A stretch of 64,000 nt of DNA, from contig JBHGNT010000015.1 in assembly GCA_043228905.1 (NCBI GenBank), positions 8,184,001 through 8,248,000 on the forward strand, given 5' to 3'. Each line of letters opens with the position of its first letter. Within the stretch, counting starts at the first letter, position 1. Both the position numbers and the translations under genes were made by a program. The notes below the pieces were generated by a model. It did no database searches, was not told where the DNA came from, and worked only from the letters and a program-made list of their open reading frames with translations. Source of the stretch: Azolla caroliniana (lineage: Eukaryota > Plantae > Polypodiophyta). Below are positions 3,630 to 48,483 of this stretch, piece by piece.

Positions 3630-4286
3630 TGTTAGAAAATCGACGCTTTCCAAAACCTTCACCACTCGGCCACAACCGAGGAAACACGAATCAATGCAAA
3701 AGTAAATCGAAAACACAGAGAGAGACTCGAATGCACAGGGTTTAGCGTGGAAAACCCTAGACGGGAAAAACCACGGGAGTGCAAGACTCCAACTATCACT
3801 ATACGCAGGGAATGTACAATGGCGAGCTGCAAGGCGACGACCTTGAGCTCGCTGTCCTCGCCACAGGCGGCGGGGCGGTATTACACAGAGGCGTCGACCT
3901 CTTCCTTTCTCTCTCTCTCACTCTCTCTCTCTCGGCTGCTCTCACTTCGCTCCCTCTCAGTGGAAAACAGAAAATGAGCAACAACAACAAACTGTTTGCC
4001 CTAAGTCATATTTATACATATATGACTTTCGGGCTATTTACAAATATAGCCTCGAGGGCCCTTGGCAAACATATTCACAGATATGTCCCCGCATCCGGAT
4101 CTCTCTCCGGGTACATTCGTCATCCGGCTCCGTAATCGGGTCTTCATCATCCGGTTCCGATACCGGGTCTTCATCATCCGGTTCCGTAACCGGGTCTTCA
4201 TCATCCGGTTCCGTAACCGGGTCTTCATCATCCGGTTCCGACACCGGGTACTCCTCATTCGGGTCTTCATTCCCGATTCCCGGACA
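3630..4286 (-). repeat. 5' LTR of copia-1
   Basis: Minus strand TGTCCGG...CTAACA termini, adjacent PBS, and similarity to the older LTR at 4686-5012/16729-16915. Confidence 0.88.
4118..4250. repeat. 27-bp tandem repeat (~5 copies) in LTR U3
   Basis: Unit CGGGTCTTCATCATCCGGTTCCGTAAC with minor variants. Confidence 0.92.
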
Positions 4287-6709
4287 TCTGAAGTGACAAC
4301 TAACGTCTCCAAACTATCCGGGAGGGAACCGAGCAGGAGCAACGCAAGTACCTCTTCGGTCAGAGCTACTTCAAGCAAGGTTGTTTGATTTATGAGCCCT
4401 TGGATTGCATTCATGTGCTCCGCCATGCTGGATTCGTCCTGGTACCGCAGTCTCGCTAACTTCCAGAATACCGAAACCAAATTTACGACGTTTTTACTCT
4501 CCAGCATGGTGCCGATTTTCTCCCGGAGCACATGAGCTTTACTTTCTTCATTAAAGTTGTTGTACATGCTCATGTTGATGAAGCACCGTATGTATGCCGT
4601 CTTCTTCATGTGCATCACCTCCCATGTCGTTGCATCAATCTTGTCCAGTTTCTTGTCCCCGAACTATACCGGTAGCCAAAGATCTTTGAACAAACTGAAA
4701 TGGAGATTGATGCACTTCTATAAGCAACAGAGAGGACACGAGATGTTTACATGGAAAACCCTAATAGGGAAAAACCACGAGAGCCCACGGATTCCAACTA
4801 TCACTATATGAGAAAAGAGTACAATAGAAGACTCTGAGGCAATGACCTCGAGCTCTGTATCTTCGCCAACCGGCGGTTACAATAGAAACTAGTCTAGCGT
4901 CTCTTCTCTCTCTCTCTCTCTATACAACAATGATACAACTAACAACATTCTTTCAAGTGATTGCCCTAAGTCATATTTATACTTATATGACTTTAAGACT
5001 ATTTACAAATATTGTCATGATATGGCAAGACTTGAACCCATGACCTTATAGTATATGGGTCAAGCTCTTAACCATCACACCATCTATTGTAATTTGTAGG
5101 ATATTATTTTCATTTATGTTTTATTATAAGAAATTAATGTATATTCCAGATTGCTCTGGAACATTCTAGAAGCTTCAGGACTACTCCTGAGAGCACTATA
5201 AAAGGAGGCACAAGGCATTGTTTTGAACCAAATTGGTTCAAACTGTCAGGAATAGTACTAAAACAGAGAGAGAATTAGTGCTGGAAAAAGGGAAGTACTA
5301 TTAGTACTAAGAGGACAAGACTGCATAAGACTCCCGAGAGAGGAAGAGAGAAGAGAAGAGAGAGAGATAGCGAGGATGAGAGAGAGAGAAAGAGATGATG
5401 ATAACAAAGGATATATTATGTGAAGAGTAAGTACAAAAAGGTGACCTTATTTAAGCCGCGGTAATCAATGACGAGACGAAGTGAGCCATCTTTCTTCTTG
5501 ATGAAGAAGATGGGTGCTCCGGCCGGAGATTTCGAATGACAAATAAACCTGCTTGCCAAGTTCTCCTCTATGTAGGCTCGAAGGACTTCTAACTCGGTGG
5601 GGTGACAAGTTGTAGATTGGTCCCCATGGTGGCTCTGCTCCTGGTTGTAAATCAATGGGACAATCGTAGGGACGATGATGAGGAAGAGTACCGGCTTTTA
5701 CCTTGTCAAATACGTCGGCATAAGGATGATATTTCGCCAAAAGTTGAACTAAGGATTCCTCCTTAATATTGCTGGAAGGATGTACTGATATGGCAAATAC
5801 GAACATTGCCTCCTTGTGTCCTTCTTCGCGTAGTTGACGTAGTGAAATGGTCGAAACTCGATGAGTATATTCTTGGGTTTGTCGATATCGGACTTCTCTT
5901 GTTCTCCAATCTATGTCTGGATTATGTAGTTCAAACCAAGGTAATCCCAAGACAATGGGATGCTCTGGACTACTAATTATATTAAATGATACTACACACA
6001 CAAAACTACCTAGGACAACCTGAATGGGTTCTGACTCTTCTACAATATTCCAGGAAGCAATGGGACGACCATCAATTACTACTACAGATGCGGGGCAAGG
6101 AAGTTTTCTTAAGGATATCTAAGAAGCTTGGGAAAAATTTCGATCCATGAAATAGGAATTGGCTCCGGAATCTAAAAGTGCTAGGACTTGTACTGGGGGA
6201 GTACTTTTAGTACTAACCATGACTTGGGCTAGGAACACATTGCTAACTTTCTTGGAGGGAATGGAACCACTAATGGGTTGTACAGATCTAGGGTTGTCCA
6301 ACCAAACGGCTCCTATTTTGGCTGGACTCAATCGTTTAACTCTTCATCTAATTGACTAAGGATTTCAAATTTGTTTGAGATACTTGGGCTATTAGTACTA
6401 TTAATACTATCAAACACTCCTAAGGGAAGAATTGACTCGGGTTTAGTACAGGCTACGATTTGATTTACCTGTCTTCTTGGCCTATGGGGACAATTGATTG
6501 CGATATGCCCTGGTCCACCGCAATAAAGACATAATCTATTTGCACGTCGTCGTTGCTTTTCTTCTTCCGATAACGGGCCACGTCGACGCATGGTGTCGAT
6601 CTCCATCAGTGTCGGAGTATTTGCTTGAGGTATGTCTCGTGCAAATGGTTTAGCCGCGACTAAGGCGTAAGTGGGCTCCGGCCTAGAGCGTGGTATTTGT
6701 AATTGACGT

Positions 6710-7544
6710 TGTCGTAGTGTATTTCGTACACTACGTGAAAAACTTATAAAGTACCGATTTAATAAATATGAATAAATAGTAGAAAATATAAAATATATAT
6801 AACATGCATAGGGCAAGATTCGAACCTTGCACCTCCATGTTAATAATGTAATGTCTTACCATTACACTAGCATTTCATTAGTATTCAAAAGTAGATGTTC
6901 CACATAGAAAGGTTAGTTCACCTAGGATAAACTTTAGTTAAAAGAAAAACGCATGTTAAAAGAAAAGGCTACTCATGCACATCTAGCGTGCATGAAGCTA
7001 TAGTTGATAATAATAATAATAAACGCACAAGTTAGAAAAAGCATGATCACTTTAGATAAAGCATATAGTCTATCTATAGGAAAAGCATGGAGTCTACAGT
7101 TAGAGGAAAAAAAAACATGGATTCCTAAGACTCCCTCATCACCATATAAGGATGGGGAGCACAATGTAATAGGTGTGAAAAATATTTGGGAAATTGGATA
7201 TATTTCCTAAAACATCAATTAATATAATCGTGGGATTCACGAAGTTTTATATAATCTATCTCTTTCAATCTAAATTCATATTCTTACATAAATATTGATT
7301 AATGTAATACTTGTGGGATTCACAAGGTTTGATCTCTTTTCTATTTCTACTCTAAACTATTCTAAACTATTTCAATTTATTACTATGATTAAGACAAACT
7401 AAAACAACTCTACTTGTGGGATTCACAAGCTTCTAATAATCTATACATAATTAAAATCGCCTAAAATTCTTCCTCTTCCTAGTCCATAACCCTAGTGGTT
7501 CCCACCCAACTCACGCAAACGATTTGGCGCCGAAAGGCACGACA
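6710..7544. mobile_element. AT-rich solo LTR (835 bp) inserted in chromovirus gag
   Basis: TGTCGT...ACGACA termini and 4-bp TSD ACGT. Removing it restores gag SERQLQ. Contains three TGGGATTCAC subrepeats. Confidence 0.85.
6803..6876 (-). other. tRNA-like module (Pol III A box and B box) inside the solo LTR
   Basis: Minus strand TAGTGTAATGG...GGTTCGAATC at tRNA spacing, with a GCAAG/CTTGC T-stem. No complete cloverleaf. Confidence 0.6.
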
Positions 7545-8989
7545 ACGTTCCGAATGCCGTTCGAAAAGGTGATTGTCGCATCGGACCGCTCGACTGATTG
7601 CCTCCGTAAGAGACTTTGGGTCTTCGGGGAAGGTTAGAAGTAGATCTTTGACATCGTTTCGCAAGCCGTAGCAAAACTGCTCCATTAGTGCTTGATCATC
7701 CCAAGGGATATCTGAAGCGAGTAGACGGAAATCCGCCCCGTAGGCAGAGGCTGGATGATCGCCTTGACGCAATCGTCGGATTTTGTTGATCGTCGTCCGG
7801 ATGTTGTCTATATCTCCAAAGCAAACTTTAAACTCACTAATAAAGTCTTCAAAGTTATTAAGTAAGGGCAATTGTTTTTCTAGAAGCGGAGCACACCATG
7901 CTAAGGCTGAGCCGCTAAGCAACGTGCCGATTAGGCCGACTCGAGATGCATCAGTGGGGTATCGAGATGGATGCATATGGATGACTAAGCGTACCTGATT
8001 AAGGAATCCCCTGAATTGTGATCGTGTTCCATCAAATTTCATAGGAAGTACAATCTTGGGCTCTTTATGAAATCCTTGTTGTTGTAACGCTGCTTCGAGT
8101 TGTTGTACTCGTAACGCTAACTCCCCATGTTGTTGTTGCGTTTGTTGTTTTTCGAGAGCGATTTGTTGCAGATCCCCTATCAACCGTTTGTTTTCTTGTT
8201 CCAAGGCAACAAATTTTTCTTTTAGACACTGTAGCTCGGAGAAAACGGATTGATATTCTTGGGCGCTAATAGTAGCCATAGTATAGGAAAAAGGGTAGGA
8301 GGATGAGGAAAAATGACAAGTAGACTTGAGGAAGAAAATTGGTTCAAACTGTGCTACAGTGGCAAATTCCACGGTCAGTACGAGATGTACAATGTTTTCT
8401 AGGTTTTGCTAACTTCTACCGCAAGTTTATACAAGATTACTCGAAGATTATTTTACCTCTCACACAACTTGCGAAGAAGGGACAAGCATTTATTTGGTCC
8501 AATGAAGCGGACATTGCTTTTCGGCATCTTAAGAAAGCCTTTACATCAGCACCTATTCTAGCTCATGTGGATACAAGCAAACCATTCATCATGGAGGCCG
8601 ACGCATCAGATTTCGCCCTCAGTAGCATCCTTTCTCAACAAGGAGATAAAGAAGAGTTATATCCTGTGGCTTTCCATTCGCGCAAATTCGATGTTGCGGA
8701 AATCAACTACGAAATACATGACAAGGAGTTATTAGCCATCGTGGATTCATTTGTGCAATGGCGGCATTTTTTGGAGGGCTCTCCACATCAGGTCATCGTC
8801 TTTAGTGATCACAAGAATCTTTCTTATTTCCAGAACGCTCGTGTGCTAAATCGACGGCAAGCTAAGTGGGCTCAATTCCTCACACGTTTTGATTTCAAAA
8901 TCGTATATCGATCGGGGAAGCAGCAAGAAAGACAGATTCACTATCACAGCGTTCATATCTTGCACCTCGTCCTGGTGATCCAGCATTGT

Positions 8990-9062
8990 CATGATATGGC
9001 AAGTCTCGAACCCATGACCTTATGCTACATGGGTCGAGATCTTACCATTAGACTATGTATTG
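8990..9062 (-). other. antisense tRNA-like A/B-box module at the chromovirus LTR 5' tip (also in LTRs at 5013, 14266, 16282, 23440)
   Basis: Minus strand TAGTCTAATGGTAAGA...GGGTTCGAG(A/T)CTTGCC, with the same spacing as tRNA internal promoters. Confidence 0.55.
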
Positions 9063-9405
9063 TAATACGAAAGATATTATTTTCATTTAAGTTTTATTAT
9101 AGGAAATTGATGTATATTCTAGAGTTCTCTAGAACATTCTAGAAACTTCAGGAGTACTCCTGACAACACTATAAAAGGAGGCACAAGGCATTATTTCGAA
9201 CCAAATCGGTTCAACGCCAGTCTTTAGCCTCATAGCCCTTTGTACTTACTTTTCCTATAATATATAATCTGTTATCATCATCTCTCTCTCTCCTCTTCTC
9301 TCTTCCTCTCTCGGGAGTCTTACACAGTCCCGTCCTCTTAGTACTAATAGTACTACCCTTCTCTAGTACTAATTCTCTCTCTGTTTTAGTACTATTCCTG
9401 ACAGT

Positions 9406-9416
9406 TTGAACCAATT
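9406..9416 (+). promoter_or_regulatory. non-tRNA (self-priming type) primer binding site
   Basis: TTGAACCAATT starts 2 nt after the 5' LTR and is complementary to LTR AAT(C/T)GGTTCAA (9204-9214), 34 nt downstream of TATAAAA (9170). Confidence 0.75.
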
Positions 9417-9465
9417 TTCTCTTCTCCCTTCATACTAACCTCTTATTCCTCTTTTCTTTCATCCC

Positions 9466-12400
9466 ATGGCCATTGTTAGCACTCAAGAATATCAATTTGT
9501 TTTCTCGGAGTTTCAATGCTTGAAAGAGAAGTTCCTTGCTTTGGAACAAGAAAATCAATGGTTGCTAGGGGATCTTTAGCAAATCTCCTTAGAAAAGCAA
9601 CAAACGCAACAATAGCATGGGGAACTTGCGTTACGCGTGCAACAACTCGAAGCAACCATCGTAGCAATGCAACAACAAGGACCCGAAACACAAGGGATTC
9701 ATAAAGAACCCAAGATTGGCCTTCCCACGAATTTCGATGGAACGCGATCACAGTTTAGAGGGTTCCTTAATCAAGTACGATTAGTTATTCAAATGCATCC
9801 TTCCCGATATCCCACCGATGCATCACGAGTGGGTTTAGTAGGCACGTTGTTAAGTGGCTCAGCGTTGGCATGGTTCGCTCCACTATTAGAAAAGGAATCT
9901 CCATTACTCAACAAATTTTGAAGAGTTTATAGGTGAGTTTAAGGCGTGTTTTGGAGATACTGACAGCATAAGGACCGCAATCAACAAAATCCGGCGATTA
10001 TGACAAGGTGACCGTCCAACCTCTGCATACGCTTCAGATTTCCGCCTACTTGCCGCCGATATCCCTTGGGATGATCAAGCGTTGATGGAGCAATTTCGTT
10101 ATGGTTTACGCAACAATGTTAAGGATTTACTCTTGACCTTCCCCGAAGAGCCAAAGTCCTTAACAAAACCAATCAGTCGCGTGGTGAGATGTGACAACCG
10201 CCTCTTTGAGCGACGTTCGGAACGACAGCTACAGATGCCAAGGGCAAGATCAGAGCCCACCTACGCATCAGTGGTAGCAAAACCTTTTCCGAGGGAGTCA
10301 TATAATGCGCCTCCAGTGAATACTCCGACTCCGATGGAGATTGACACTACACGTCGTCGAGGGCCATTATCCAAAGAAGAAAAGCAGTGACGTCTAGCAA
10401 ATCGACTATGTCTTTATTGCGGTGGACCAGGGCATATTGCAGTAAATTGTCCCCATAGGCCAAGGAGACAGGTAAACCAAATAGTTGCTAGTACTAACTG
10501 TACTAAACCCGAGTCTGTTTCAGTAGGGATATTTGATAGTCCTAATAGTACTAATAGCCCAAATCTAGCAAACAAATTTGATGTCCTTAGTCAATTAGAA
10601 GAAGAGTTAAACGACTAAGTCTAGCCAAAATAGGAGTCGTTTGGTTGGACAACACTAGATCTGTGCAGCCCATTAGTGGTTCCATTCCCTCTAAGCAAGT
10701 TAGCAATGTGTTCGTAGCCCAAGTAGCAGTTAGTACTAAAAGTACCCCTCCAGTACATGTCCAAGCACTTCTAGATTCCGGAGTTAATTCTTGCTTCATG
10801 GATAGGAAATTTGCCCAAGCTCATCAGATATCTCTCAGAAAACTACCGTGTCCTGCCTTTGTAGTAGTCATTGATGGTCGTCCCATTGCTTCCGGAAATA
10901 TCATAGAAGAGTTAGAGCCCGTTAACATTGTCCTAGATAATCTAGCATGTGTCGTATCATTTAATATAAATAGCATCCCAGAACACCTCATTGCCTTAGG
11001 ATTACCATGGTTCAAATTACATAACCCAAATATAGATTGGCGGACAAGAGAAATCCGACATCGAAAAGCCTGAGGGTCTACTCATGAGATTGCAACGATT
11101 TCACTACATCAGTTGCGTGAGGAAGGACGCAAGGAAGAAATGTTCCTCTTCGCAATATCAATAAAACCCTCCAGCACCACTAAAGAGGAATCCACAATTC
11201 AACTTCCAGAGAAGTATCGTCATTATGCTGATATGTTTGATAAAGTACAAGCCAATACACTTCCTCACCATCGACCATATGATTGCCCCATCGATTTACA
11301 ACTAGGAAAAGAGCCACCATGGGGACCGATCTACAACTTGTCACCAACCGAGCTAGAAGTCCTTCAAGCCTACATAGAGGAGAATTTGGCGAATGGGTTC
11401 ATTCGACATTCGAAATCTCCAACCAACGCACCCATTTTCTTTGTCGAGAAAAAGGATGGCTCACTTCGTCTCGTTGTAGATTATCGTGGCTTGAATAAGG
11501 TTACAATCCGAAATAGGTATGCACTTCCCCTTATCTCAAGTCTTTTAGAACAGATCAATGGTGCCAAGTTCTTCACAAAGATCGACTTACGAGGAGCCTA
11601 TAACCTCGTACGGATCTGACCAGGAGATGAATGGAAGACCGCGTTCCGCACCAGATATGGGCACTTCGAGTATACGGTCATGCCGTTCGGCCTCACTAAT
11701 GTGCCAGCAGTCTTCCAGCACATGGCAAATGATATTTTCCGAGATCTCTTGGATGTGTGTCTAATCATTTATTTGGATGATCTACTGGTTTACTCAAAGA
11801 CCCAAGAAGAGCATGATTCTCATGTACTGTTAGTACTAAAATGACTTCGAGAACATGGTCTTTATGCAAAGCTGGAAAAATGTAGTTTCGGGTGCAACCA
11901 GGTGGAATTTCTCGGCTATGTCATTTCCTCAAAAGGCATCTCCATGGACCCAGCTAAGGTCAAAACAGTGGTAGAATGGCAAACTCCGCATTCGGTGCAT
12001 GATGTGCAATGCTTTCTAGGCTTTGCAAATTTTTACCGGAAGTTTATAAAAGATTACTCAAAGCTCATTTTGCCTCTTAAACAACTTACTAGGAAGGGAC
12101 AATCGTTCGTTTGGTCTGAAGAAGCGGACATGGATTTTGAGAATCTTAAAAAGGCATTTACATTGGCTCTGATTCTAGCTCACGTTGATCCAAAAAAACC
12201 ATTCATCATCGAAGCGGACGCATCGGATTTTGCATTGGGGAGCATTCTATCACAACGAGGTAATGATGAAAAGCTACATCCTATGGCTTTTCACTCATGC
12301 AAGTTTGACGCCGCCGAAATCAACTACGAAATTCATAATAAAGAGCTATTGGTTATAGTGGACTCTTTTATGCAATGGAGGCATTTTCGAGAGGGATCTT

Positions 12401-14180
12401 CTCATCAAGTCACTGTATTCAGTGACCACAAAAACCTCGCCTATTTTCAAGACGCTCGTGTATTAAATCGACGTCAAGCTCGGTGGGCCCATTTTCTCAT
12501 GCGTTTCGACTTCAAGATTACATATCGACCTGGGAAGCACCAAGGGGAAGCAGATGCATTATCTAGCACTGCGTCCCGACGAGCCAACTTTCGATAACCA
12601 AAAGCAAGTAATCTTGGGACCGGCACGACTGCAAGCAACACAGGTCTTTGGCATGCCCATGGATTCCCACGTTATCAATAACATACGTGCGGACCTGAAG
12701 ACAAATGCTTTCGCCCAAGCTATACTAGCACAAATTGATCCCTCTCGAGCGTTGTGTTCACAGTCGCAACCATTAGGTACGGACTATCGGCATTCAAATA
12801 CCATGATGGATTACTCTTCTTTAAAGAACTTTTGTATGTTCCTAATGGTTCTTGCCGTCTTCGAGTAGTACAAAACTGTCATGACACATATACAACTGGG
12901 CATTTTGGTAGTACTAAATAATTAGATTTAGTACAACAATCATTCTGGTGGCCCCATATGTGACAATTTGTCGAAGATTTTGTTCGGACTTGTGATACAT
13001 GCTGCAGAGCGAAAATGCCAAGGCATCATCCATATGGTTTATTAGAACCATTACCAATTCCAAGCAAGCCGTGGCAATCCATTGCTCTAGAGTTCATCAC
13101 AAATCTTCCAGTCTCTAAGGGGTTCAATGCGATTCTAACAGTGGTAGATCGATATACGAAGATGGCTCATTTCTTGCCATGTACTAAGGAAATCTCCAGT
13201 GAAGACACTGCCGAAATTGTCATGCATGAAGTATGTCGGCATCATGGACTTCCCGATAGTATCATCAACGACCGTGGACCCCAGTTCGTGTCAAAATTCT
13301 GGAAGTACCTTTTTAAAATGTTCAAGGTCACTTGTAACCTCTCCTCTGGCTACCACCCACAAACCGACGGCCAAGCCAAACGAACAAATCAAACGTTGGA
13401 GCAGTATCTGCGGTGCTTTCTCAACTATCATCGGGATGATTGGGCAGATATTATCCACTTCGCCGAATTTTCCTATAATAACTCTATCCACGCATCGACT
13501 AAAGTTACGCCATTTTATGCTTATACGGGATGTCACCCCCGGTGGTGTGTACTTGAAACCCCAGAGGTGTCCACAAATCCTTGCGCGGAGGATCGTTTGG
13601 AGCGGTTACGCAAGATACAAGCAGATTTATCTACTCATCTCCAGCAAGCTCAACAAACACACAAGGTCTACGCGGATTGTCATCGACTTCCATCCAATTT
13701 TAACATTGGAGATCGAGTGTGGCTACTACGACGACACATCAAGACTACTCGCCCATGTGAGAAGTTGGATTATCGGCAATTAGGTCCTTTCCGTATTATT
13801 GGAAAGATTAATGATGTCGCTTTTCGTCTTGATCTACCTCTGCAACTTCAGATACATCCGGTGTTTCATAGTTCTCTCCTCGAACCCTATCATGAGAGCA
13901 TCATCCCAGGACGTATTATACAACCTCCACCCCCGATCGAGCTTGAAGATGGACCGGAGTACGAGGTTGCCGCCATCCTTGATTCCAAGATTGTTCGCAA
14001 CAAGCTCTAGTATCTAGTCCATTGGCTAGGATATAGTCCCAGCGAACATACTTGGGAACCGATCGAGAATTTGACCAATGCTCATGCTCTTCTTGAAGAT
14101 TTCCAACGTCAATATCCACACAAACCGGGTCCTCAATCCAAAACGACTTGTGACACTCGTCGTTTTAAAGGGGGGATAGT
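9466..14180 (+). pseudogene. chromovirus gag / PR-RT-RH-IN-chromodomain, with multiple stops and frameshifts
   Basis: [71 protein letters not shown]. Confidence 0.93.
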
Positions 14181-15140
14181 GTGTCATGATATGGCAAGAC
14201 TCGACACAAACGAGGTCCTCAATCCAAAACGACTCGTGACCCTCGTCGTTTTAAAGGGGGGACAATGTCATGATATGGCAAGACTCGAACCCATAACCTT
14301 ATGCTACGTGGGTCGAGCTTTTACCATTAGACTATGTATTGTAATATGAAAGATATTATTTTCATTTAAGTTTTATTATAGGAAATTGATGTATATTCTA
14401 GAGTTCTCTGGAACATTCTAGAAACTTCAAGAGTACTCTTGACAACACTATAAAGGGAGGCACAAGGCATTATTTCGAACCAAATCGGTTCAACACCAGT
14501 CTTTAGCCTCATAGCCCTTTGTACTTACTTTTCCTATAATATATAATCTGTTATCATCATCTCTCTCTCTCTCTCCTCTTCTCTCTTCCTCTCTCGGGAG
14601 TCTTACACAATCCCATCCTCTTAGTACTAATAGTACTACCCTTCTCTAGTACCAATTCTCTCTCTGTTTTAGTACTATTCTTGACAAGCGTTCGATAATC
14701 AAAATCAAATAATCTTAGGACCAACACGATTGCACAAAATGCAAATTTTTCACACCCCAATGGATTCCCAGATTACCGACACCATACGTACGAACTTGAA
14801 GACGGACAATTTTGCTCAAGACATTCTGGCGCACATTGATACCTCTCGAGCATCCTGTTCCCAGTCTCAAGAACCAGGTATGGACTACCGACAATTCGAA
14901 TATCATGATGGTTTGTTATTCTTTAAAAAGCTTGTATATGTCCCCGATTGCTCCTATCGCCTTCAAATCGTCCAAAGTTGTCACAACACCCATATGGCGG
15001 GACATTTCGGTAGCACTAAGAAGTTGGATCTAATTCAACGATCCTTTTGGTGGCCCCATATGCGACGTTTTGTCGATGATTACGTTCGGACCTGTGATGC
15101 TTGTTGCCAAGCAAAGATGCCATGACATCATCCATATGGC

Positions 15141-16289
15141 TTGTTGGAACCCTTACCGATTCCAAGTAAGCCGTGGAAATCTATTTGTCTTGACTTTATC
15201 ACAGATTTTCCGGTCTCGAAGGGGTACGATGCTATCTTAATTGTCATCGATCGATATACGAAGATGGCACATTTTGTGCCGTGTACTAAGGCCATCACTA
15301 GCGAGGAAACCGCTGCCCTTGTCATGCGTGAGGTATTTCGGCATCATGGCCTCCTAGACAGTATCATCAGTGACCGAGGACCGCAATTTGTCTCCAAATT
15401 TTGGCAGCATCTCTTCAAGATGCTCAAGGTCTCTTGCAACCTCTCCTTCGGCTACCATCCTCAGACCGATGGGCAGGCGGAACAAACAAACCAAACGCTG
15501 GAGCAATATCTCCGGTGTTTCCTAAGTTATCAACAGGACGATTGGGCCGAGATTCTCCACTTTGCAGAGTTTGCGTATAATAATGTTGTTCACTCCTTGA
15601 CTCGAGTCTCCCCATTCTACGCTTATACCGGTTCTCATCCTCGTTGGTCGGTGATCGACACCCCGGAGCTACCTACCAATCCTCATGCCGAGGATCATTT
15701 GGAGAGACTACGCAAGATCCAGATGGATCTCTTTACTCATCTTCGTCATGCTCAACAGACACAGAAGACTTACGCAAATCATCATCGGCTTCCCTTCTCT
15801 TTTGCCATCGGAGATCGAGTATGGCTTTTACGTCGTCACATCAAGACTACTCGACCGTGCGACAAGTTGGATTATCGACGACTCGGTCCTTTCCATATTA
15901 CTGGTAAGGTTAATGATGTCACGTTCCGCCGTGATCTTCCTCCGCATCTTTGGATACATCCGGACTTCGATAGTTCTCTTCTTGAACCTTATAAAGCAAA
16001 CACTATTCCCGATCGTGTTACACCACCGCCACCCCCGCTTGAGTTAGACGACGGCCCGGAGTATGAAGTTGTTGCCATCCTCGACTCCAAATTTGTTCGC
16101 AAAAAACTTTATTATTTGGTCGATTGGCTCGGCTATAGTCTGAGCGAACGTACTTGGGAGCCCGTCGAGCATGTTGCCAATGCTCAAGATCTTCTTGCTG
16201 ATTTTCACCGACAGTATCCCGACAAACCCGGTCCTCAATCAGCCTCGACTTGTTCCACTCATCATTGTAAGGGGGGGATAATGTCATGA
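15141..16289 (+). pseudogene. integrase core plus C-terminal chromodomain of the outer chromovirus
   Basis: CLDFIT, SDRGPQF, HPQTDGQAE, GPF, EYEVVAILDS..YYLVDWLGY..TWEP. Confidence 0.92.
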
Positions 16290-16915
16290 TATGGCAAGAC
16301 TCGATCCCATGACCTTATGGTATATGGGTCGAGCTCTTAACCATCACACCATCTATTGTAATTTGTAGGATATTATTTTCATTTATGCTCTATTATAAGA
16401 AATTAATGTATATTCCAGATTTCTCTAGAACATTCTATAAGCTTTAGGACTACTCCTGACAGCACTATAAAAGGAGGCACAAGGCATTGTTTTGAACCAA
16501 ATTGGTTCAACGCCAGTCTTAAGCCTCATAGCCCTTTTGTACTTACTCTTCACATAATATATCCTTTGTTATCATCATCTCTCTCTCTCGTCCTCGCTAT
16601 CTCTCTCTCTTCTCTTCTCTCTTCCTCTCTCGGGAGTCTTACACAGTCCCGTCCTCTTAGTACTAATAGTACTTCCCTTTTTCCAATACTAATTCTCTCT
16701 CTGTTTTAGTACTATTCCTGACAAATATAGCCTTTACAACACATCTGAAACATATTTGCAGATATGTCCCTGGATCCGGTTCACACCGGATCCATCCGGA
16801 TACCTTCCAGTCCAGTCTGGTTGTTGCATCCGGTCTAGTTCCTTCCTTCGGATCATCCGATATGGCTCCTCCGGTTCTCATCCGGATCCCATCCGGAGGG
16901 ACTGAATTCCCAACA

Positions 16916-22571: not shown

Positions 22572-23848
22572 TATGCTTGTTGCCGAGCAAAGATGCCACG
22601 ACATCATCCATAGGGTTTGTTGGAATCCTTACCAATTCCAAGTAACTCGTGACAGTCCATTTGTCTTGGTTTTATCACAGATCTTCTAGTCTCGAAGGGT
22701 TTCGATGCTATCTTAACCGTCGTCGATCAATATACTAAGATGGCACAGTTTGTGCCTTGTACTAAGGTCATCACTAGTGAGGAAACCGCAACCCTTGTCA
22801 TGCGTGAGGTATTTCGGCATCATGACCTCCCAGACAATATCATCAGTGATCGAGGACCTCAATTCGTCTCCAAATTTTGGAAGCATCTCTTCAAGATGCT
22901 CAAGTCTCTTGCAACCTCTCCTCCGGCTACCATCCGCAAACAGATGGGCAAGCGGAACGAACGAATCAAACGTTGGAACAATGTCTTCGGTGTTTTCAAA
23001 GTTATCAACAGGACGATTGGACTGATATTCTCCACTTTGCGGAGTTTGCGTATAACAACACTATTCACTCCTCGACTCGGGTCTCACCATTTTACGCTAA
23101 TACCAGTTCTCATCCTCGTTGGTCTGCGATCGACACCGCAGAGCTACCTACCAATCCTCGTGCCGAGGATCATCTGGAGAGGCTATGCAAGATTCAGACG
23201 GATCTTCCTCCACGCCTTCAGATACATCCGGTCTTCCATAGTTCTCTTCTCGAACCTTATCATGCTAACACTATTCCCGATCGTGTTACACCACCACCGC
23301 ACCCGCTTGAGTTGGGAACTCGTCGAGCATGTCGCCAATGCTCAGGATCTTCTTGCTGATTTCCACTGAAAGTATCCGGACAATCCCGGTCCACAATCAA
23401 CGCCGACTTGTGACACTCGTCGTCTTAAGGAGGGGATAGTGTCATGATATGGCAAGACTCGAACCCATAACCTTATGTTATATGGGTCGAGCTCTTGATC
23501 ATTACATTATCTATTGTAATATGTAGGATATTATTTTCATTTAAGTTTTACTATAGAAAATTATTGTATATTCTAGATTTCTCTGGAACATTCTAAAAGC
23601 TTTAGGACTATTCCTGAGAACACTATAAAAAGAGGCACAATGCATTATTTCAAACCAAATTGGTTCAACGCCAGTCTTAAGCCTCATAGCTATTTTGTAC
23701 TTACTCTTCACATAATATATCATCTGTTATCATAATCCTCTCTCTCTCTCTCTCTCTCGCGAGTCTTACACAGTCCGTCCTCTTAGTACTAATAGTACTT
23801 CCCTTCTCTAGTACTAATTCTCTCTCTATTTTAGTACTATTCTTGACA
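22572..23848 (+). mobile_element. 5'-truncated chromovirus: deleted integrase remnant, PPT and 3' LTR (23440-23848)
   Basis: SDRGPQF and YHPQTDGQAE motifs. LTR TGTCATGA...TTGACA matches the chromovirus family. Confidence 0.9.
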
Positions 23849-30400: not shown

Positions 30401-32466
30401 AACTCTAATACTGTTAAGCTAGCTCTTCCAAGAAATCAGAGCTTCCTTGTGCCTTGCATTCTTAACTTTAGACCATTTTATATCAGAGGAAATATGAGCA
30501 ACCTACGAAAGGGATCCCAAGATGTTAGTCTCATTTGTCCCCAAATTCCTGTCTACCTTATGATCACGCCCCTTTCTGGTCGTGTTCTGCATTTGTATTC
30601 TCCAATACAAGATCTTGAGAAGAGGATTGTGATCCAATGATATTGTATGAGTTCTCAGTTGAAACACGATGAAGGGTTCCTTCATTCTCTTTACGCGACA
30701 CTCAAGCTTTTTCCTACAACTGCCCATGCTGACGATGGATGTTTTTGAAATTAAAAATGCTTGATTCTTACTGTCATTAATGTCAACTTGAGCTGATAGG
30801 TGACTGTACTTTCAAATCAATTTATTATGTTTTAACAAATTTCTCACATTCTAATATTTATCCTTGTGCTATTACTATTTTATGTATTTTCACATGTATG
30901 GTACATCATGTCTGCACAAGTAGTTTCAAAATAAAGTATGTGGATGGTAAGCAATACTCATCAGTAATAAAATTTAATTTATGTTTAAGAAATGCACCTG
31001 AAAAATAAAGCCATTTGCAAATTCATTGGTTGGTATCATGCCATGCATTTGGTGTTCAATGATAAATGCTGGTTCTGGTTTTGCAGATAATTACATTCTT
31101 GCAACAAAATGCTCATCCACATGTTGCACAGAAGGTGCCTTCTATTCCAGAAACAGTGTGTGATCAGGTAGCTTTTTTGTGGAGATGATATATAGCATGT
31201 AAAGTAGCATGCTCAATGACTTGAGCTTATTACACTACACTGAAAATTATGCATTGGAAAGAATATTCATGTATGTAAAGGCGAACAATTGTAGTAAGTT
31301 AATGGATGGGTCCCTATGACATACTTTGTTAGCCAAAAGGTGGTTCATTCTGGGTGGATAGCAATGTGGCCAACGCTTCTATGAACTGTTTCATGTATGT
31401 TGTTGGCCAACGCTTAAATGTTAATGGGGAACTTTTAGGTGGGTAAAAGCATAGTTGTAAAATACTTAGCATACAATATGTATGGTATGTATTTAAAAAG
31501 TACTCTACGATTTTCTAAAAATTGCGTAGAATACGTATTCTAAAGATGAAATATTTTGAATACATTAAATACTTCTTAGATTTGTATTGGATCTAACAAT
31601 TGATTTTTGGCCAAATTATTATAATTTTATTATTTATTTACTTTTAAGAAACATAAAATACTAGAATATATTAAAAACATGGACATTTTGAAACGACAGT
31701 TCAAAAATGTAGAATGTGTTAAATACTTCTGAGTATGCTATACATAAAATATGTGTTTTTTACAACTATGGACCATGAAAGTTATTGGTAGTAACAGATA
31801 ATTGCGAGAGAGTCTGAGGTGTCGTATTCATAAAGGCTTTCCATACAAGGTTTATTGTAGCTCACGAGGGAGCATTGAATATGGGTTCACGGTTTATATG
31901 CATGTATCTCTTATACGTTTTTAAGCCACTAACATTTGGTGTAACACTTGTAATGCGTTCCTCTTCCAAGTTCATCTCTATTTATCTTATTCTGAATCTC
32001 AATAAGAAATGTATACCATTGAAACTCCATAAATACATTCCTACGGCAAAATTACATAATTTGTTTTTTCAGATTCGACTATGGGAGAAGGATAGCAATC
32101 GGGTGCAATATGTGCCCTCTTGTTACTATGATGATTTTCCATGCAAGGTGAGCTACATCAGATTAGTTTTGAATTCGGTTATGCTCGTGCACTATTATGC
32201 CATTGTGCTTAAAAATTCAGTGTTTTCTTTATCCATATCATTCTTGACATATAGTTAATGGAACTATTATCCTTTTCATTGGAATTTTAATGCATGGTTG
32301 TGTATCTCAGGATTTTTTCGACTCAATATGCTTGTATGCGCAAGATAGAGGTGGGCTTGTATGGCATGATGATTCTAAAAGAAGATTGATAGTTCGTGCT
32401 GATCTTCATGAAGAAATTCGAGCCTATATTAGGCAACAAAGTACTGCATCATCTCAAAAGAGATAA
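27410..32466 (+). CDS. TFB2: general transcription and DNA repair factor IIH subunit TFB2 (p52/GTF2H4); 15 exons: 27410-27522, 27951-28115, 28194-28262, 28335-28428, 28576-28682, 28787-28835, 28917-28976, 29059-29127, 29414-29497, 29567-29656, 29796-29881, 29952-30042, 31087-31167, 32073-32147, 32311-32466
   Basis: Spliced length is 1389 nt (462 aa plus TAA) and exon phases are consistent. Motifs MPNVKFVARDFM, LPPIAKMYV, LTEAGFQFLL, WFIPTRLA, IETNFRLYAYT, IEYQLPNL, FLQQNAHP, DQIRLWE match plant Tfb2. Confidence 0.95.
31450..31770. mobile_element. MITE-like element in TFB2 intron 13
   Basis: 13-bp perfect TIR CATAGTTGTAAAA / TTTTACAACTATG around an AT-rich core. No clear TSD. Confidence 0.6.
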
Positions 32467-32563
32467 CTTTACTTTATGGCAATTGCTTTTACCCCCTCTT
32501 CTTTCTAAGAGACTTGTCACATAATAACAAAGAAATCTTTGAAAATACTTGATTGCATGAGAT

Positions 32564-33137
32564 TATAAGGGTGCCACATTGATTTAATTCATGGTGAGAT
32601 GCACATAAGGTGATGATGATCTCTGGAATAGAGCTTGTTCTTGTGCATGCAGTAAGGAGTATAAGGGCGCCACATTGATTTAATTCATGGTGAGATGCAC
32701 ATAAGGTGATGATGATCTCTGGAATAGAGCTTGTTCTTGTGCATGCAGTAAGGAGTATAAGGGCGCCACATTGATTTAATTCATGGTGAGATGCACATAA
32801 GGTGATGATGATCTCTGGAATAGAGCTTGTTCTTGTGCATGCAGTAAGGAGTATAAGGGCGCCACATTGATTTAATTCATGGTGAGATGCACATAAGGTG
32901 ATGATGATCTCTGGAATAGAGCTTGTTCTTGTGCATGCAGTAAGGAGTATAAGGGCGTCACATTGATTTAATTCATGGTGAGATGCACATAAGGTGATGA
33001 TGATCTCTGGAATAGAGCTTGTTCTTGTGCATGGAGTAAGGAGTATAAGGGCGCCACATTGATTTAATTCATGGTGAGATGCACATAAGGTGATGATGAT
33101 CTCTGGAATAGAGCTTGTTCTTGTGCATGGAGTAAGG
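32564..33137. repeat. 96-bp tandem repeat, 6 near-identical copies
   Basis: Units start at 32564, 32660, 32756, 32852, 32948 and 33044 (TATAAGGGCGCCACATTG...CATGCAGTAAGGAG). Confidence 0.97.
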
Positions 33138-34819
33138 CAATCACGTGGAGATATAATCATCATTGATTATATGGGTGAAAATTTCTGATAATAACGGGCA
33201 CTTATCTTTTTTAAGGTTTCGTTTAGCTTGAAGCACATGAAACTACAAGCAACTCTATATATGTGAAAAACTTAATGATTACGAGAGACTTCAGCAAGAG
33301 AAACATGGGATCAAAATCCATATGCAATCAAATGTAATAATGGGAGAATGAGTAAAACATGTATTACTCACGTGGTGATCCAATTTTGAAAAGGTTGGTG
33401 GTGGGGTGATGAATGCATCTCTAATGTTGTAAGATGATAGTGTTGATCTCATGAAAAATATGCACATTGGAATTTTGGTCTTGATTGGTGATAAGGATGT
33501 ACGCAACAAAGAGCAATTGCCCTAGTTGTGAGTTTCTTTGGAGCTGGGGGTCCACTTTGTCCATGATCTCTTTGTGGAAAAGTAATTTGTCATTTTTTGA
33601 AAGAAGGTAGGTCAATGAGAGTTTGAATCCCTTAGGCTTCTTTTGTTATTGTTGCTGTACAACTCTATGGAAGGGTCCAAATACTTCTCTAAAGAGGTAG
33701 TACTATCTTACTTTATACTTTGATAGACTAGTCAAGGATGCACCCTCTCATTTTTGTCTTGTCAAGTTATTTGTTAATTTTTTTTGTCTCTATCCTCAAA
33801 GACGAGGGAATATGTTTGCTCCTTTTAATCTTTTGAGATAGGATAACAAATAATTATTGTTAAGTTTGATGTTGAGCTTACCTTCACCATAACATGTATA
33901 GTAGGTAGTGTGCATGCTATAAATGTGTGTAACAAGTGGTAGAAAGTGACTCATTGAACCACTATAAAATATTCAGCCAATGAATATAACATGGAAAAGA
34001 TAAAGGGTTGGAAGCATCACATTGTATTCTATACTAATCTATCCATTGAATTATGATGAGCGCCATTTTGTTCCTTTCTATTTTGATATATTATTCTTAT
34101 TCAGTGTTGGTTAAATTGAGAGTGAGACCACTTCTAAACATGATGGTAAGCTAAGTTTGTGGTGTGTATAAAGTTTGTTGGTTAAAAGGATCATTAGACT
34201 TAATTTACACAAAGAACACTTGATGGTGACAAAACAAGGGACAAAAATGCTCTTTATATTATGTACAACTCAAAGTGTTACAAAAGAGTCCCAATATTCA
34301 AACAAAACCAAAATGTGTGTTGGGATAGGTCGGGGCAACTTTGTTTTGCTCTAAGGAGAGAGCACCAAGCATTGACTTCTGAAAATGAGAATGAGGGATG
34401 AATAATCCTTTCCATGCCTTCTCCTTATAGAGGGCGTTAGATGGTTGTTGGAATTAGCCATTAGGCTAGTTGTTGGGGCAATACATTGGGAATACTCATT
34501 TGAATAAGAATTGGGATAAACCATGGTGGCATGCCCCTCTTGGGACTAGGATTGTACTTTCGAGTGAGAGTCTCAATTTGTTGGGATAAATTGAGGACAC
34601 TACATTCACATGGGTCTTTTAGAGATGGAGTTCCATCAAGCGTGCAAAACCTTGTTAAGGATTATAGTGCATTATTCCTTCACATTGTGTTTCTTGGGCC
34701 ATTCTCGATCTTCTACTCTATGGTCCTTTAAGGAAACTCCTCGTTTTGATCTCTCGCTCAACCACCTTGGTTGTGCGCACCTTCACCGGAGCCACCTTGT
34801 CTTCTTTTTCCTCCAATTC

Positions 34820-43243: not shown

Positions 43244-45071
43244 ACGCATACGCTTCCGCACACGTATTCTTTTACATGGTATCAGAGGGCGAGGGTTGAG
43301 ACTCCTCTGCATCCAACAGAAAAGCTTGTGATAAAGACAAAACTAAGCTATTGTCTTCGGAAAGGATAAGACAACAATATGGATAGAGGAATGGGAAGCT
43401 CGACAGGTGCAACTACACATCTTGGTTTTACAAGATGCACCAATAGTTGCTTGGTCATGGTTACTGGACTTATGTCGAAGGAGCTAATGATACAACACCC
43501 AAATCGACACACAGAGATTTTTCGGCTTGGGAGAGTTCTTTACTGATTCGCATCCTGTGTGAGAGACCAACTCTTGAGCTACATTCGGGATGCTAAGACG
43601 CCAAAGGACGCATGGGCGAATCTCAAGGGGATTTTCGCTGCTAGCACAATGCCAAGGAAACTGCAGATTAGCCAGGAGCTCAACAATGTCCGACATAAAG
43701 ATCTATCTATGGCCGATCACATGGCCAGAATTAAGGAGATCTATGACTCTCTTGCCTTCGTCAACGTGAACGTCGAGGACGAAATGGTGCAAGTTTTTCA
43801 TGGAGGGTTAGCATCAAAGTTTGGAGCATTCCGAATGGCGATCTGCATGAGGGAGAATACGCCTTCGTTCTTCGAGCTTCAATCGATGTTGCTCGTGGAG
43901 GAAAATCACGCGGGTGCGTCAAAGAGTACGCACCCCGACAACAAGATGTTGTACACGGAGGAGGATAGGCCCCGTGGCCATGGCGGACGAGGCGGATCAG
44001 CGCGCAATGGAGGCGGCCGAAAAGAGCAGAGCGTGCGGCATGATAGAAATGCCGGAAGCAATTCCGAACCCTTCGAAAGTAGGGGGAGTCATGGCGGCGC
44101 AGGAAGCTGACAAGAGAAGGCCGCGACGGAATGTTGGTACTATGGCAAGAAAGGCCATAGGGAGAGCGAGTGCTAGAAGAAGAGAGCCAATTCGGACAAT
44201 GCCGGATCGAGCAGAAGAGATGCAGAGTGGCATCAAATGTCGCTCTACGTTGAGGAGCGGGCCCAACCTTCGTAATGAAGCACATGGCCAATTCAATGGT
44301 CGTGAACACCTTGAAATCGAGCGAGGTGTGGTATGTTGATTCCGGAGCGTCAAATCATATGAAGAGCCACGAGGAATGGTTCTCGTACTTGGAGAAACCG
44401 GGAAAGCAAGGAGTGGTCAAAACCGGAGACGACACTCCGCATACCATAGAACATGTCGGCAAAGTTCCCCTCAGCTACGTCGGGCAGAAAGGGAAACTCA
44501 TGAATGTACTGCACATTGTCGTGAAGAAAACCAACCAGAAGTGGAATTGGCGAAGCAAGGCGCATGACCCGGGCCTACACTTTCCCACACCAATTGATAC
44601 CTTGTAAATAACTAAGAGTAGGACAGTGGGAGCAAAGAGACTAGATGTGACGCATCAAATGTCTAGGAAATCAAGGAGTATCTCTACCCGAAAGGACAAA
44701 GAATAAATTGATGAAAACAAGGGTGCAACGGCCTGCCTCGATGGCCTATAAAAGGGAAGGAAGAAGGCGGATGAAAAAATCGCGTTTTGGGGAGCGAGGA
44801 TGGAGTGATGTCGAACCGTGACCGAGCTCTCTCCTCCATCGTTCGTCTTTCTCTATAGGATTTCGGCCTGTGTTGCCTCTGCTTCGTGGACAACCCGTGT
44901 GCTTCCGACAGAGGCTCCAATGTACAGTCGGGCTGTGTGCGTGCGTGAGCATCGTGTGTGTGTGTGTTCGCTTGAGTGGGGTTTGTCGCCGACTTGCCGG
45001 TTGTAATCGTTATTGATTTATAATTAAGACATTGTTCTCCCTCTCTTTCTCCCTCTGTGTTTCTGCAAGCT

Positions 45072-45105
<34 letters not shown>

Positions 45106-45182
45106 TTCTCACGCTCCTTGGTACAAGGCCCCCGCGGTCCCGCCTCTTTCCACACACGTAGAGCACAACAACCCGACATATT

Positions 45183-45200: not shown

Positions 45201-48200
45201 ATAGGCGGCAAAGGAGTGAAGGATGAGGGGATCCGAGCTTGCTAAACCTATGGCCGTAGCCGTCGACTGGCTAGTGAGTGCTCCCGAGGGAACGGGTGCC
45301 CTCGACAGGGCCATTGAGTCGATCGTCGGCACCATAGGTCGATTCGGTGGGAAGAATTCCATGAGCTACTTGGAGGCCTACCGGGCCGAAATGATCATGA
45401 GGGATATCTCGGTGGACAGGCAGCTGTCCGGATTCCCTCAGGTGGTGACGCCGAGCATCCACGCGGAGGTGCTCGAGATGTTGGCCGGGTGCCAGACTTG
45501 GGAGGAGTTCGAGCTACGGCTCCTTGAGATGTATGGGTTTGATGACTCGCTCTGGATGTCGAAGCGAGAATTCATGACGTGGGTTGAGAGCCCTGGGAAG
45601 GGGAGGAACGCGTCGGCGCTCCTCCAAGAATTCGAGAAACGGTTCACACAGCTGTCAATGCTAGGTTCTACTATTCGTCAAGTCGGTGGACGCCATGGTC
45701 TGGGAGAAGGTGGGTCTCCTGTTGGAAACGGATGAAGGGCTCACGGCAGACTGGGCCATGGTAAGGAGGGTCTGCGATCGTTTTGACAAGCGGTGCGAGT
45801 GGAGCGACGAGGGCTCGTCAGCGGCAAGGCCAGTCCCAACGAGAGAGCTCGAGGAGCCGGTGTCGGTACCGACTAGGAAGGAAGAAACTCAGAGTTGGCT
45901 TGAGATGGGATCAGCCCGGAGCAGAGTGGTCAAAGTTCCCTCCGGAGGCGCAGTTCTTGAGGAGCTGTCGCAGATGGTGCGAGATCTCCAAATCGCACAG
46001 GCCCGGAGGGACAACGGCGAACAGTCTCGTGACCGAAGGCCGCTGGTGGGGCAGCGGTGCATGTGGTGCGACGTGGTTGGCCACGTCCGGAAAGAATGCG
46101 CGGATTTTGCCGAGGCGCTTGGGACCAACGTGGTGTACCTCTGGAACGGGCTAGTGCACGTGAGCGAGACCCGGAAAGCCCTAGAGTTGAATACGGGGCG
46201 CGGCGAAATGAAGCGGTTGATGGAAGAGGCCGCGACACGACATGCAGAGGCCGTTAACTACTCGACGTTGGCGGGAATCCGGGTCGAGGGTGATGAGGCC
46301 CGGAAAGCGAAGGACTCTGGATTCTGGCCGTTGGTGCTAGAGGGTCTCTCTGGAGTACGACTAAAGAAGGAAGAGGCAGACCGCGTGGAATAGCGGATCC
46401 GGGAGGGCACCAGATGGGACGACCCGGTGGAAGAAAACACTGGCTTTGTGGCAGCCGCATGCCAGAACTACGAGGTTCTGGTAGAAGACAAGCGCGCAGG
46501 AAAGGCTAGAGGGGTCGGGCCCTTGCAGTGCTACGAGACCCGGTTCGGACCATAGTCGAATGAGGCCGCCAACGACGGCGTGCCGGAGAAAAAGAAGCAG
46601 GCCGGCTTCCGGTTGAGCACCGAAATCGAGTGAACAACGGACCTACGGAAGGTCCTGGAAGAGAGAATTCTCGACAACAAGGTTGAGCTGTCATTACGGG
46701 AGGTGCTGGGAATTGCCACGAAAGAGTTCCACGACTCCATCGTGGACTTGGTGAAGCGGAAGAGGCTCATGACGGAGCCGGAACCGGAGAGGCCGGGTGA
46801 AGTGCGGACAACGCACTTAGAAGACACGGCCCTAGAGGATGAGTTGGCGGAAAGCCACTACGCGAAGCCGCATTGGGCTAGGGCCACTACGGAAACCCCT
46901 GTTCGGATCGGCGACATCCAGGAGCCGGTGGTGGCATTGGTAGACCACGGTTCGGAGATTAACCTGATGTCCATGGATTTCTATAAAAAGGCGAAATGGC
47001 CGATCAACACCAAGCACGGGTGGAAGATACGTGCGGCAACACACGCTACAGAGGAGCTGCATGGTGCATGCCCAAACGTACGCGTGAAGATCGACGACGT
47101 CGAGATAGATCAGCATTTCTTCGTGCAGGAGACTTCCTCGCACCCGGTAACTCTCGGCGAACCGTACATTACGGCAGCACACATGGAGACAAAAGTACTA
47201 GACAATGGTTCGGTGTATGCTCGCGTCAAGAGCCAAGACGGTCGGCATTCCATACAATTCATGACAGTGCGACCCAACCACGAGCGAAACTGTGAGACCC
47301 TCGACGCCGACAGCCGAGGGGACTTTTAGAAAGGGCTATCAAGGCGTGGGGCCGCGATATTCCGGACACCTCGGAAAAACCCCACACATGTATTATAGGT
47401 AGGAAATTTTGGCTCTCCGAAAACGGAGGTTGGACACTAACCGACATCAGTAGCCAGGAGAGGAAGTGGGCAGAGAGACAACTTAGGGAGTGTGGAGTCC
47501 TCTCCCCCGACGAAGAAATTAGCGGTGCCGTGGAGGTGGTCTCTTTTGACGACACCTTGGGCGAATTATGAGAGGTGGTCAGTAAAGGCCTTAGCGAAGA
47601 CCGGACCATTCCGGTTAGCTCGATGGGTATGTACGAAGTCATCGCAGACTTCGGGGAGAGGATCGGGCCAGATCGAACGGCCCGCGTGGATACAAAGTAC
47701 AAGACTGTGAACTTGAAGGTGAGGCCAGTTGCGGCACCCTTGCCGGCGGGCAGCGGAGAGCGGATAAAGAGGGTCGTGTCAGACCCAAGTTTACGGTGTC
47801 GAGGTATTCCTCGCGGATGCGTGGAATGAGGCGGGACCTCGGGGGTCCTGTACCGAAGAGCAAGAGAGAAAGGAGAAGAGACCCACTACGTGCGAGAGTA
47901 GATTCACAGGGACACGGCCCTTCGACATAAAGACGCGAGTGGGACAGCGACACAGAGAGACACGAATGTATGTATGTATTAACAAAGACAAACGACAAAA
48001 CGGGAAGTCGGTTACAACCGAACAGGCCGGCGAACAGATGCCGATACCTGTTCGTAAACACACAGAAAGGAAGGAGTAGGTTGGAGGTGCTGCCGGAAGC
48101 ACTCGGGCATTCCTCAGAGCAGCGCGAGCCTCCCGAAACCTACACAGAAGGAAGCTATGGAGCTTGCGAACCAGAGAGAGAGAGAGAGAAGCCTTCGCAC

Positions 48201-48483
48201 ACAAACCGACAACACTTCTTCCTTGACTCTCCGCGATCACATCCCCCTTCGCGTCTCCCTCCTTTTATAGGCAAGGAAGGAGCCGTTTCCCCTTTACTTC
48301 CTACCCACTAAATCTACTTGCCAAGGATCTTCTATGGACAACATTCGGGAAGAGCTGGTTCCTATGCTCCTGTGCACCGATTCCGCTTGTGGACGGTTTT
48401 CTTCACGACATCCGCCCCCACCTAACTGTGCATCCACCGGCATGCGCCAAATTGAGTTGGGACGGAGAAAACCGGTCTAGCCT

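Follow-up and report, generated by a model that had tools for sequence, protein, structure and literature searches.

Pol III promoters inside LTRs are known from non-coding TRIMs, in which they substitute for the Pol II promoter. The tRNA-type example is Helenus ('TRIMp3'; Kojima 2024), a group of non-coding TRIMs of 311-1263 bp for which a single plant family is known, in Selaginella (PMC10886601). In the account given there, Helenus LTRs carry tRNA-like sequence that is conserved near boxes A and B and does not form a functional tRNA, the proposed origin is a SINE insertion, and production of the template RNA is the suggested role of the promoter. That analysis covered only TRIMs of <1 kb, and its author did not expect TRIMp3 and autonomous elements to have many LTRs in common (PMC10886601). 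Cassandra and Ajax TRIMs present a second case of a Pol III internal promoter captured in an LTR with its boxes conserved. Their promoter is of the 5S type (type 1), the elements are non-autonomous, and the Cassandra promoter makes the genomic RNA (PMC10886601). For captures of this kind, a sugar-beet paper from 2026 cites solely Cassandra and Helenus/Ajax (PMC13570524). Outside transposons, yeast A/B-box sites with TFIIIB/TFIIIC limit the spread of silencing (PMC9540200).

The module described here lies in LTRs of a 64-kb stretch of DNA, the whole of which is called the window, and in related LTRs elsewhere. Like Helenus, it is tRNA-like LTR sequence conserved near boxes A and B without a functional tRNA, and we read its origin as similar (PMC10886601). 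The tRNA-derived A and B boxes inside the LTR that characterize Helenus are present, with a weak Rfam tRNA alignment (13.4 bits). In contrast to the proposed template-RNA promoter of Helenus, the module faces away from its element, and it is carried by Gypsy elements that code for proteins (a chromodomain integrase in one family, a 1060-aa pol in another) and have TATA-like Pol II promoters. Membership in Helenus is therefore rejected on autonomy (5.7-kb element; 1060-aa pol) and on antisense orientation. Compared with Cassandra and Ajax, the promoter is type 2 (tRNA) rather than type 1 and its carriers are coding, and an antisense module cannot make genomic RNA as the Cassandra promoter does (PMC10886601). 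Similarly, the described tDNA/TFIIIC barriers and ETC sites are host loci of yeast and animals, whereas this module is transposon-borne and its barrier role is putative (PMC9540200). Full-text searches of largely open-access literature turned up no description of a tRNA-type promoter lying antisense in the LTRs of Tcn1 or Phygy among the papers listed.

The window is composed of nested Gypsy and Copia retrotransposons, with the Gypsy proteins confirmed by protein search and Atlas look-ups. Sequence like that of positions 6710-9410 is also present elsewhere, both in plant and leaf metagenomes and in runs of DNA sequencing from several organisms. The tRNA-type consensus is TRGYNNARN(N)GG for the A box and GRTTCRANNC for the B box. 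Exact matches to this consensus were sought 40-51 nt apart, with block-wise dinucleotide shuffles as controls. Three exact A+B pairs occur in the window versus none in each of 10 shuffles. Their A boxes start at 6869, 9055 and 14334, the spacing is 43 nt in every case, and all three fall within a solo LTR and chromovirus LTRs (Table 1). When one mismatch is allowed, the window has five matches, four of which are the module, and the shuffles have 0-3 each. Shuffles of single LTRs yield any A+B match in 0-2 of 500 trials.

These results agree with the sequence-only reading of this DNA, which had noted minus-strand A and B boxes with a 43-nt spacing in both LTRs. The A-box variant that it reported for the outer chromovirus subfamily, TGGTGTGATGG, is likewise present, at 5082 and 16351, with one mismatch and a spacing of 44. 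Its statement that the two modules differ only in the anticodon arm was too narrow: the arm does differ, but so do the flanks and the 4 nt that precede the B box. The gap between the boxes is 32-33 nt, inside the type-2 range; A-to-B gaps of type-2 Pol III units span 31-93 bp, and the commonest gap in yeast tRNA genes is 32 bp (PMC11724288). A tRNA-Arg gene in the related contig L029 has a box spacing of 44 nt, equal to that of the module variants. This gene is tRNA-Arg(TCT) at L029:1944-2019, and its contig also holds a chromovirus LTR ~1 kb away.

Table 1. Coordinates of the LTRs, promoter boxes and predicted structures in the window.
Feature	Position	Strand	Remark
U3 half of rearranged chromovirus LTR	5013..5241	+	module with 1 mismatch, spacing 44
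Solo LTR, Phygy-like non-chromovirus Gypsy	6710..7544	+	ends TGTCGT...ACGACA
T4 run, candidate Pol III terminator, solo LTR	6790..6793	-	23 nt after B box
Stem-loop (predicted), B box in loop	6802..6840		13-14 pairs, Phygy-like family
B box, solo-LTR module	6817..6826	-	exact match, 43 nt from A-box start
A box, solo-LTR module	6859..6869	-	exact match
5' LTR, Tcn1-like chromovirus	8987..9403	+	element 8987-14686
Long hairpin (predicted) spanning chromovirus module	8996..9048		fold z -4.4 to -6.0, three window copies
B box, chromovirus module	9003..9012	-	exact match, ends 16 nt from LTR tip
A box, chromovirus module	9045..9055	-	exact match
TATA-like motif and predicted Pol II start, chromovirus 5' LTR	9170..9215	+	read from sequence
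3' LTR of element 8987-14686	14266..14686	+	module exact, A box 14334-14324
Chromovirus LTR, outer subfamily	16282..16723	+	module with 2 mismatches, spacing 44
Chromovirus LTR	23440..23848	+	module with 2 mismatches
GC-rich LTRs, Phygy-like relatives, without module	44503-45178, 47797-48410, 54085-54695, 60041-60664		

The module is not a tRNA gene. ARAGORN found no tRNA, and relaxed settings returned noise only. The Rfam tRNA comparison that had been proposed as a check leaves the solo module well below threshold (13.4 bits, E 2.6, versus a gathering score of 29). Three other modules tried gave no match to this model, and an Rfam search over 4000-25000 gave no tRNA match. In addition, the modules fold as long hairpins. 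A functional tRNA gene is rejected on these three grounds. The chromovirus module is identical to tRNA Arg-TCT, the only host-type tRNA found, at 33 of 66 positions, an identity too low to point to a source tRNA.

The carriers come from different Gypsy lineages, because their target duplications, priming type and chromodomain differ. Tcn1 typically self-primes and carries a chromodomain, and among sampled plants it was found in mosses and club-mosses only; Phygy, first defined in Physcomitrella, has a 4-bp NCGN target duplication and no chromodomain (PMC6317226). The chromovirus LTR occurs in the window as five copies or half-copies. Its element at 8987-14686 (5.7 kb, with gag/pol remnants) is flanked by a 5-bp target duplication, AGCAT/AGCGT, with one mismatch, and the family has an integrase with a chromodomain at 15126-16289. 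At the predicted Pol II start of this family, ~30 nt past the TATA-like motif, the first bases can pair with the 12 nt that follow the LTR, which form a self-priming site (9404-9415). A chromodomain and a self-priming site are thus common to this family and to Tcn1 (Neumann 2019, PMC6317226).

The solo LTR sits within chromovirus gag and has a 4-bp target duplication, ACGT; eight 5ˊ flanks of its relatives are NCGN or CpG-decayed NCGN. One relative, L063, extends past the solo-family LTR into a tRNA-type primer site and then gag, which is 27% identical (E 8e-9) to the gag of a further carrier, L006. No chromodomain match was found in the L006 pol. The solo-LTR/L006 carriers accordingly have in common with Phygy the NCGN duplication and the lack of a chromodomain (Neumann 2019, PMC6317226). 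The Tcn1-like and Phygy-like carriers are distinct Gypsy lineages, a placement made from such traits and not from a tree that includes reference elements. Given the plants in which Tcn1 and Phygy are known, the host is probably a seed-free land plant. Unlike the carriers here, Tcn1 and Phygy are described in the relevant passages of that paper without mention of a Pol III module in their LTRs (PMC6317226).

Further copies were sought by scanning metagenome contigs with a 23-letter pattern from the B-box side of the module, with the A box outside the pattern. The 73 loci recovered comprise 45 chromovirus copies, 12 of the solo family, one new family (L006) and 15 unrelated loci on other contigs, which have the 23-nt B-box stretch in common and several of which are SINE-like. 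Among the unrelated loci, L005, L059, L062 and L014/L034 have this 23-nt stretch within tRNA/SINE-like heads, and in some of them an A box is spaced at 44 nt. The new family, L006, belongs to the non-chromovirus Gypsy elements; its pol is open over 1060 aa, and its LTR of 539 bp is 78% identical to the solo LTR over 88 nt at the module and matches it in one more 25-nt patch. A generic box scan of 58 host-type loci (143,807 bases), which is independent of the pattern, added a fourth family: a second Tcn1-like LTR in L017, with a PPT. Its module has an A box with one mismatch, an exact B box, a spacing of 44 and an unrelated spacer. In all four families, the module is located within U3, is antisense to the PPT, PBS and ORFs, and lies ~115-280 bp upstream of TATA-like motifs. 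Viral contigs yielded nothing by protein or by pattern. Prokaryote genome contigs yielded one chromovirus fragment, L074 (48% identical), in whose short LTR end an A+B pair was not evident by eye.

The distribution of the module is patchy. Ten other LTR-like stretches of the window, the GC-rich LTRs of Table 1 among them, have no module, and their best matches, with 3-4 mismatches, are at shuffle level. The GC-rich LTRs listed in Table 1 have a tRNA-type primer-site motif in common with L006 and L063 and lie among coding sequence that is 63% identical to the L006 pol. Because these L006-related LTRs carry no module, it must be dispensable for the clade, and they serve as naturally occurring negative controls.

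Comparison of one real copy per family across the six family pairs gave a mean identity of 0.74 for the A box and 0.90 for the B box, the latter inflated by the search pattern in three of the four families. Outside the boxes, the means are 0.33 for the mid-spacer, 0.41 for the upstream flank and 0.30 for the downstream flank. Local alignment of the whole solo and chromovirus LTRs scores best at the module itself. However, the significance of this alignment against shuffled controls, another check proposed from the sequence, is marginal: with +2/-3 scoring, the scores for four chromovirus copies are reached by 6, 11, 91 and 20 of 300 shuffles. With +5/-4 scoring, the alignment is not significant (128-231 of 300 shuffles). 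When the profile of each family was searched against the other, the E-values were 0.004-1. Given this marginal alignment, these E-values and the 15 unrelated loci with the 23-nt B-box stretch, one shared capture is no more than a possibility. The earlier proposal of a captured tRNA/SINE head is therefore supported in part, as a module with conserved boxes in the U3 of four families, two more than that reading had noted.

Conservation within families was assessed using 41 aligned chromovirus rows (51 collected, less four duplicates and six rearranged or truncated copies) and 13 rows of the solo family. Among matches of sufficient length for scoring, an exact A box is present in 31 of 44 from the chromovirus family and 8 of 12 from the Phygy-like family versus 1 of 15 unrelated matches, counts that include a few duplicate loci. 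It is within one mismatch of the consensus in 41 of the 44 related chromovirus matches, although the search did not select for it. In the solo family, T8, A14, G18 and G19 are invariant in the 12 of 12 aligned copies covering them. Variation in the A box is concentrated on the degenerate positions R9, Y11 and N12. When counted on a tree, 10 of 34 A-box changes in the chromovirus and 3 of 12 in the Phygy-like family break the consensus. For sliding control windows in U3, the mean breaking share is 57% and 59%, respectively, and windows as low as the A box number 2 of 73 and 1 of 120 (the windows overlap).

The outer-subfamily variant had been taken as a hint of selection on the box, and the low breaking share in the sliding-window test is in line with this view. 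Comparison of inherited with tip-only changes in the A box does not bear it out, giving no selection signal (Fisher p 0.21 and 0.93; pooled 0.43) from short alignments with low power. Two variable A-box positions in the Phygy-like family form a CpG, on which part of the tolerated change falls. In the B box of this family, a box-breaking CpG change is carried by 6 of 13 copies and is placed on internal branches of the tree; across four runs it makes up 26-30% of depth versus 13-23% for a tolerated change. For C56 of the chromovirus B box, breaking changes fall on tip branches in six of six events. In four runs not selected for the box, only the CpG of the solo B box varies at a level of at least 8%. 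Contig depth along the solo LTR, a rough measure, is highest on the B-box side in four of four runs. Among the matches listed (24 of 192 rows), some subfamily loose ends apparently lack the A-box GG.

Candidate Pol III terminators follow the B box in three of the families. The T4 run of the solo family is at a fixed position, +23, in the window copy and in 11 of 11 other copies checked, and there is a T5 run at +25 in L006 and a T4 run at +19 in the L017 family. These T4-5 runs at +19 to +25 lie within the LTR, in T-rich sequence. In the window chromovirus, 16 nt of LTR remain past the B box, and no conserved T run was found beyond the PPT in eight 3ˊ LTRs. The suggestion that an antisense RNA from the 3ˊ LTR would run across the PPT thus applies to the window chromovirus family and not to the other three, whose T4-5 runs are inside the LTR.

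On balance, the arrangement of these features suggests that the module is probably a decayed, tRNA/SINE-derived type-2 Pol III promoter that has been kept in U3 for TFIIIC/TFIIIB binding. A function for the module is plausible, and we infer everything beyond the sequence pattern. Presumably, TFIIIC would bind the B box, and TFIIIB, placed by the A box, would sit slightly within the LTR, toward the enhancer and near the element's own Pol II promoter. Since the module faces outwards, TFIIIB would come to lie between the module and the TATA-like motif, inside the LTR. Retention of an A box beside a B box points to TFIIIB placement, beyond TFIIIC binding alone (PMC11724288). In three families, Pol III might make an antisense RNA of ~90-100 nt that ends at the T4-5 run in the LTR, and in the window chromovirus the RNA would leave the LTR and, from the 3ˊ LTR, cross the PPT. 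A role as genomic-RNA promoter is rejected, because the module is antisense in all four families and the orientation is therefore wrong. The element could benefit from having, at the outer border of U3, a site that is constitutively bound and poor in nucleosomes. Such a site might keep the LTR promoter open amid nested, methylated elements, as yeast tDNA/TFIIIC sites do. The antisense RNA would then be secondary, either a by-product or a second function.

A bolder formulation, which we offer tentatively as a possible rather than a probable one, is that two distant autonomous Gypsy lineages have repeatedly domesticated an outward-facing tRNA-type Pol III unit in U3. This unit would act both as a portable barrier, protecting the Pol II promoter of the element against silencing, and as a gene for a small RNA, and it would be exchanged between families via LTRs. 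An antisense type-2 promoter beside the intact Pol II promoter of coding elements must serve a purpose other than that of the TRIM promoters. If this purpose is that of a barrier, the module would counter silencing without the help of any protein of the element and would offer a direct handle on TFIIIC-site barrier action in plants. Solo LTRs would, in that case, leave many mobile TFIIIC sites in the host.

Structure is a real rival cause of the conservation, because the LTRs of both families fold over the boxes. The sequence-only reading had mentioned neither these hairpins nor Helenus, the nearest family described so far. The region could be tRNA/SINE-derived and now be kept as a stem-loop, in the 3ˊ U3 of the plus-strand genomic RNA or at the DNA end, with the boxes as passengers. 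Located just after the PPT, a 3ˊ U3 stem-loop might act in reverse transcription, packaging or integration. Consistent with this possibility, 96% of cells are paired in the 13-14-pair stem of the Phygy-like family, and three pairs are changed on both sides among 13 sequences. None of 500 shuffles has as many both-side-changed cells, and 10 of 500 have as many pairs. The chromovirus module also has strongly negative fold z-scores in the window copies (Table 1), and a common variant at 9028 retains a G-U pair on the plus strand. Moreover, the chromovirus B box is at most 26 nt from the LTR tip, such that integrase recognition could also constrain it. However, the hairpins differ between the lineages, with the B box in a loop in one and in a stem in the other, and the boxes and their spacing are alike. 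Hairpins thus leave unexplained why different folds keep these boxes and this spacing. In addition, T8 and A14 of the A box are outside the stems yet near invariant, and the chromovirus stem has almost no covariation (at most one cell changed on both sides in 38 rows). The paired changes of the Phygy-like stem amount to 2-3 events, which quasi-palindrome repair could produce. For these reasons, we consider maintenance as a stem-loop unlikely, although it merits attention.

A neutral remnant is likewise an improbable source of the pattern. Here, one or more SINE heads would have been inserted into U3, or template-switched between co-packaged elements, and hitch-hiked since, with seeming conservation arising from young bursts and search bias. 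The null result of the internal-versus-tip lineage test, the frequent CpG decay of the Phygy-like B box and the existence of related LTRs without the module are all compatible with this history. So are the 15 of 73 pattern matches that are unrelated, several of them SINE-like, with the B-side 23-mer in common, and the occurrence of tRNA-like pieces in 'not a few' Repbase LTRs (Kojima, PMC10886601). On the other hand, spacers are at chance identity between families and the boxes are above it, and decay of one insert predicts otherwise. Four independent fresh insertions, all of them antisense in U3, are also unlikely. Neither the 58 host-type loci nor, among the matches listed, 24 loose-end rows showed a SINE body, a SINE tail or a free copy. 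Finally, a chance resemblance to A and B boxes, arising in AT-rich U3 sequence or at binding sites of Pol II factors, would accord with the low Rfam score and the marginal whole-LTR alignment, but it is very improbable and largely refuted by the single-LTR shuffles and by recurrence in four families with constant tRNA spacing and orientation.

Several rearrangements and repeats were observed near the carriers or elsewhere in the window. The chromovirus LTR at 5013-5441 folds back on itself, with the turn exactly at the self-priming sequence, so that plus-strand U3 joins inverted U5. An inverted gag copy at 5441-8352 also starts at the self-priming site and has almost no 5ˊ LTR. At 14182-14265 there is a duplicate of 84-86 bp of the PPT and LTR tip, which breaks at TCGA inside the B-box hairpin. 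On a related contig, L017:1068-1193 (the locus is also L003 and L071) is a mini-element of 126 bp that has TG...CA ends and is flanked by a target duplication of 5 bp. It combines the tip of the chromovirus LTR, including the complete module, with an A-box fragment in inverted orientation and lies downstream of a GH32-family exon. The window also includes a 27-bp tandem repeat at a Copia gag-like ORF (4089-4265) and, at 32465-33232, a tandem array of a 96-bp unit whose core copies are 98-99% alike.
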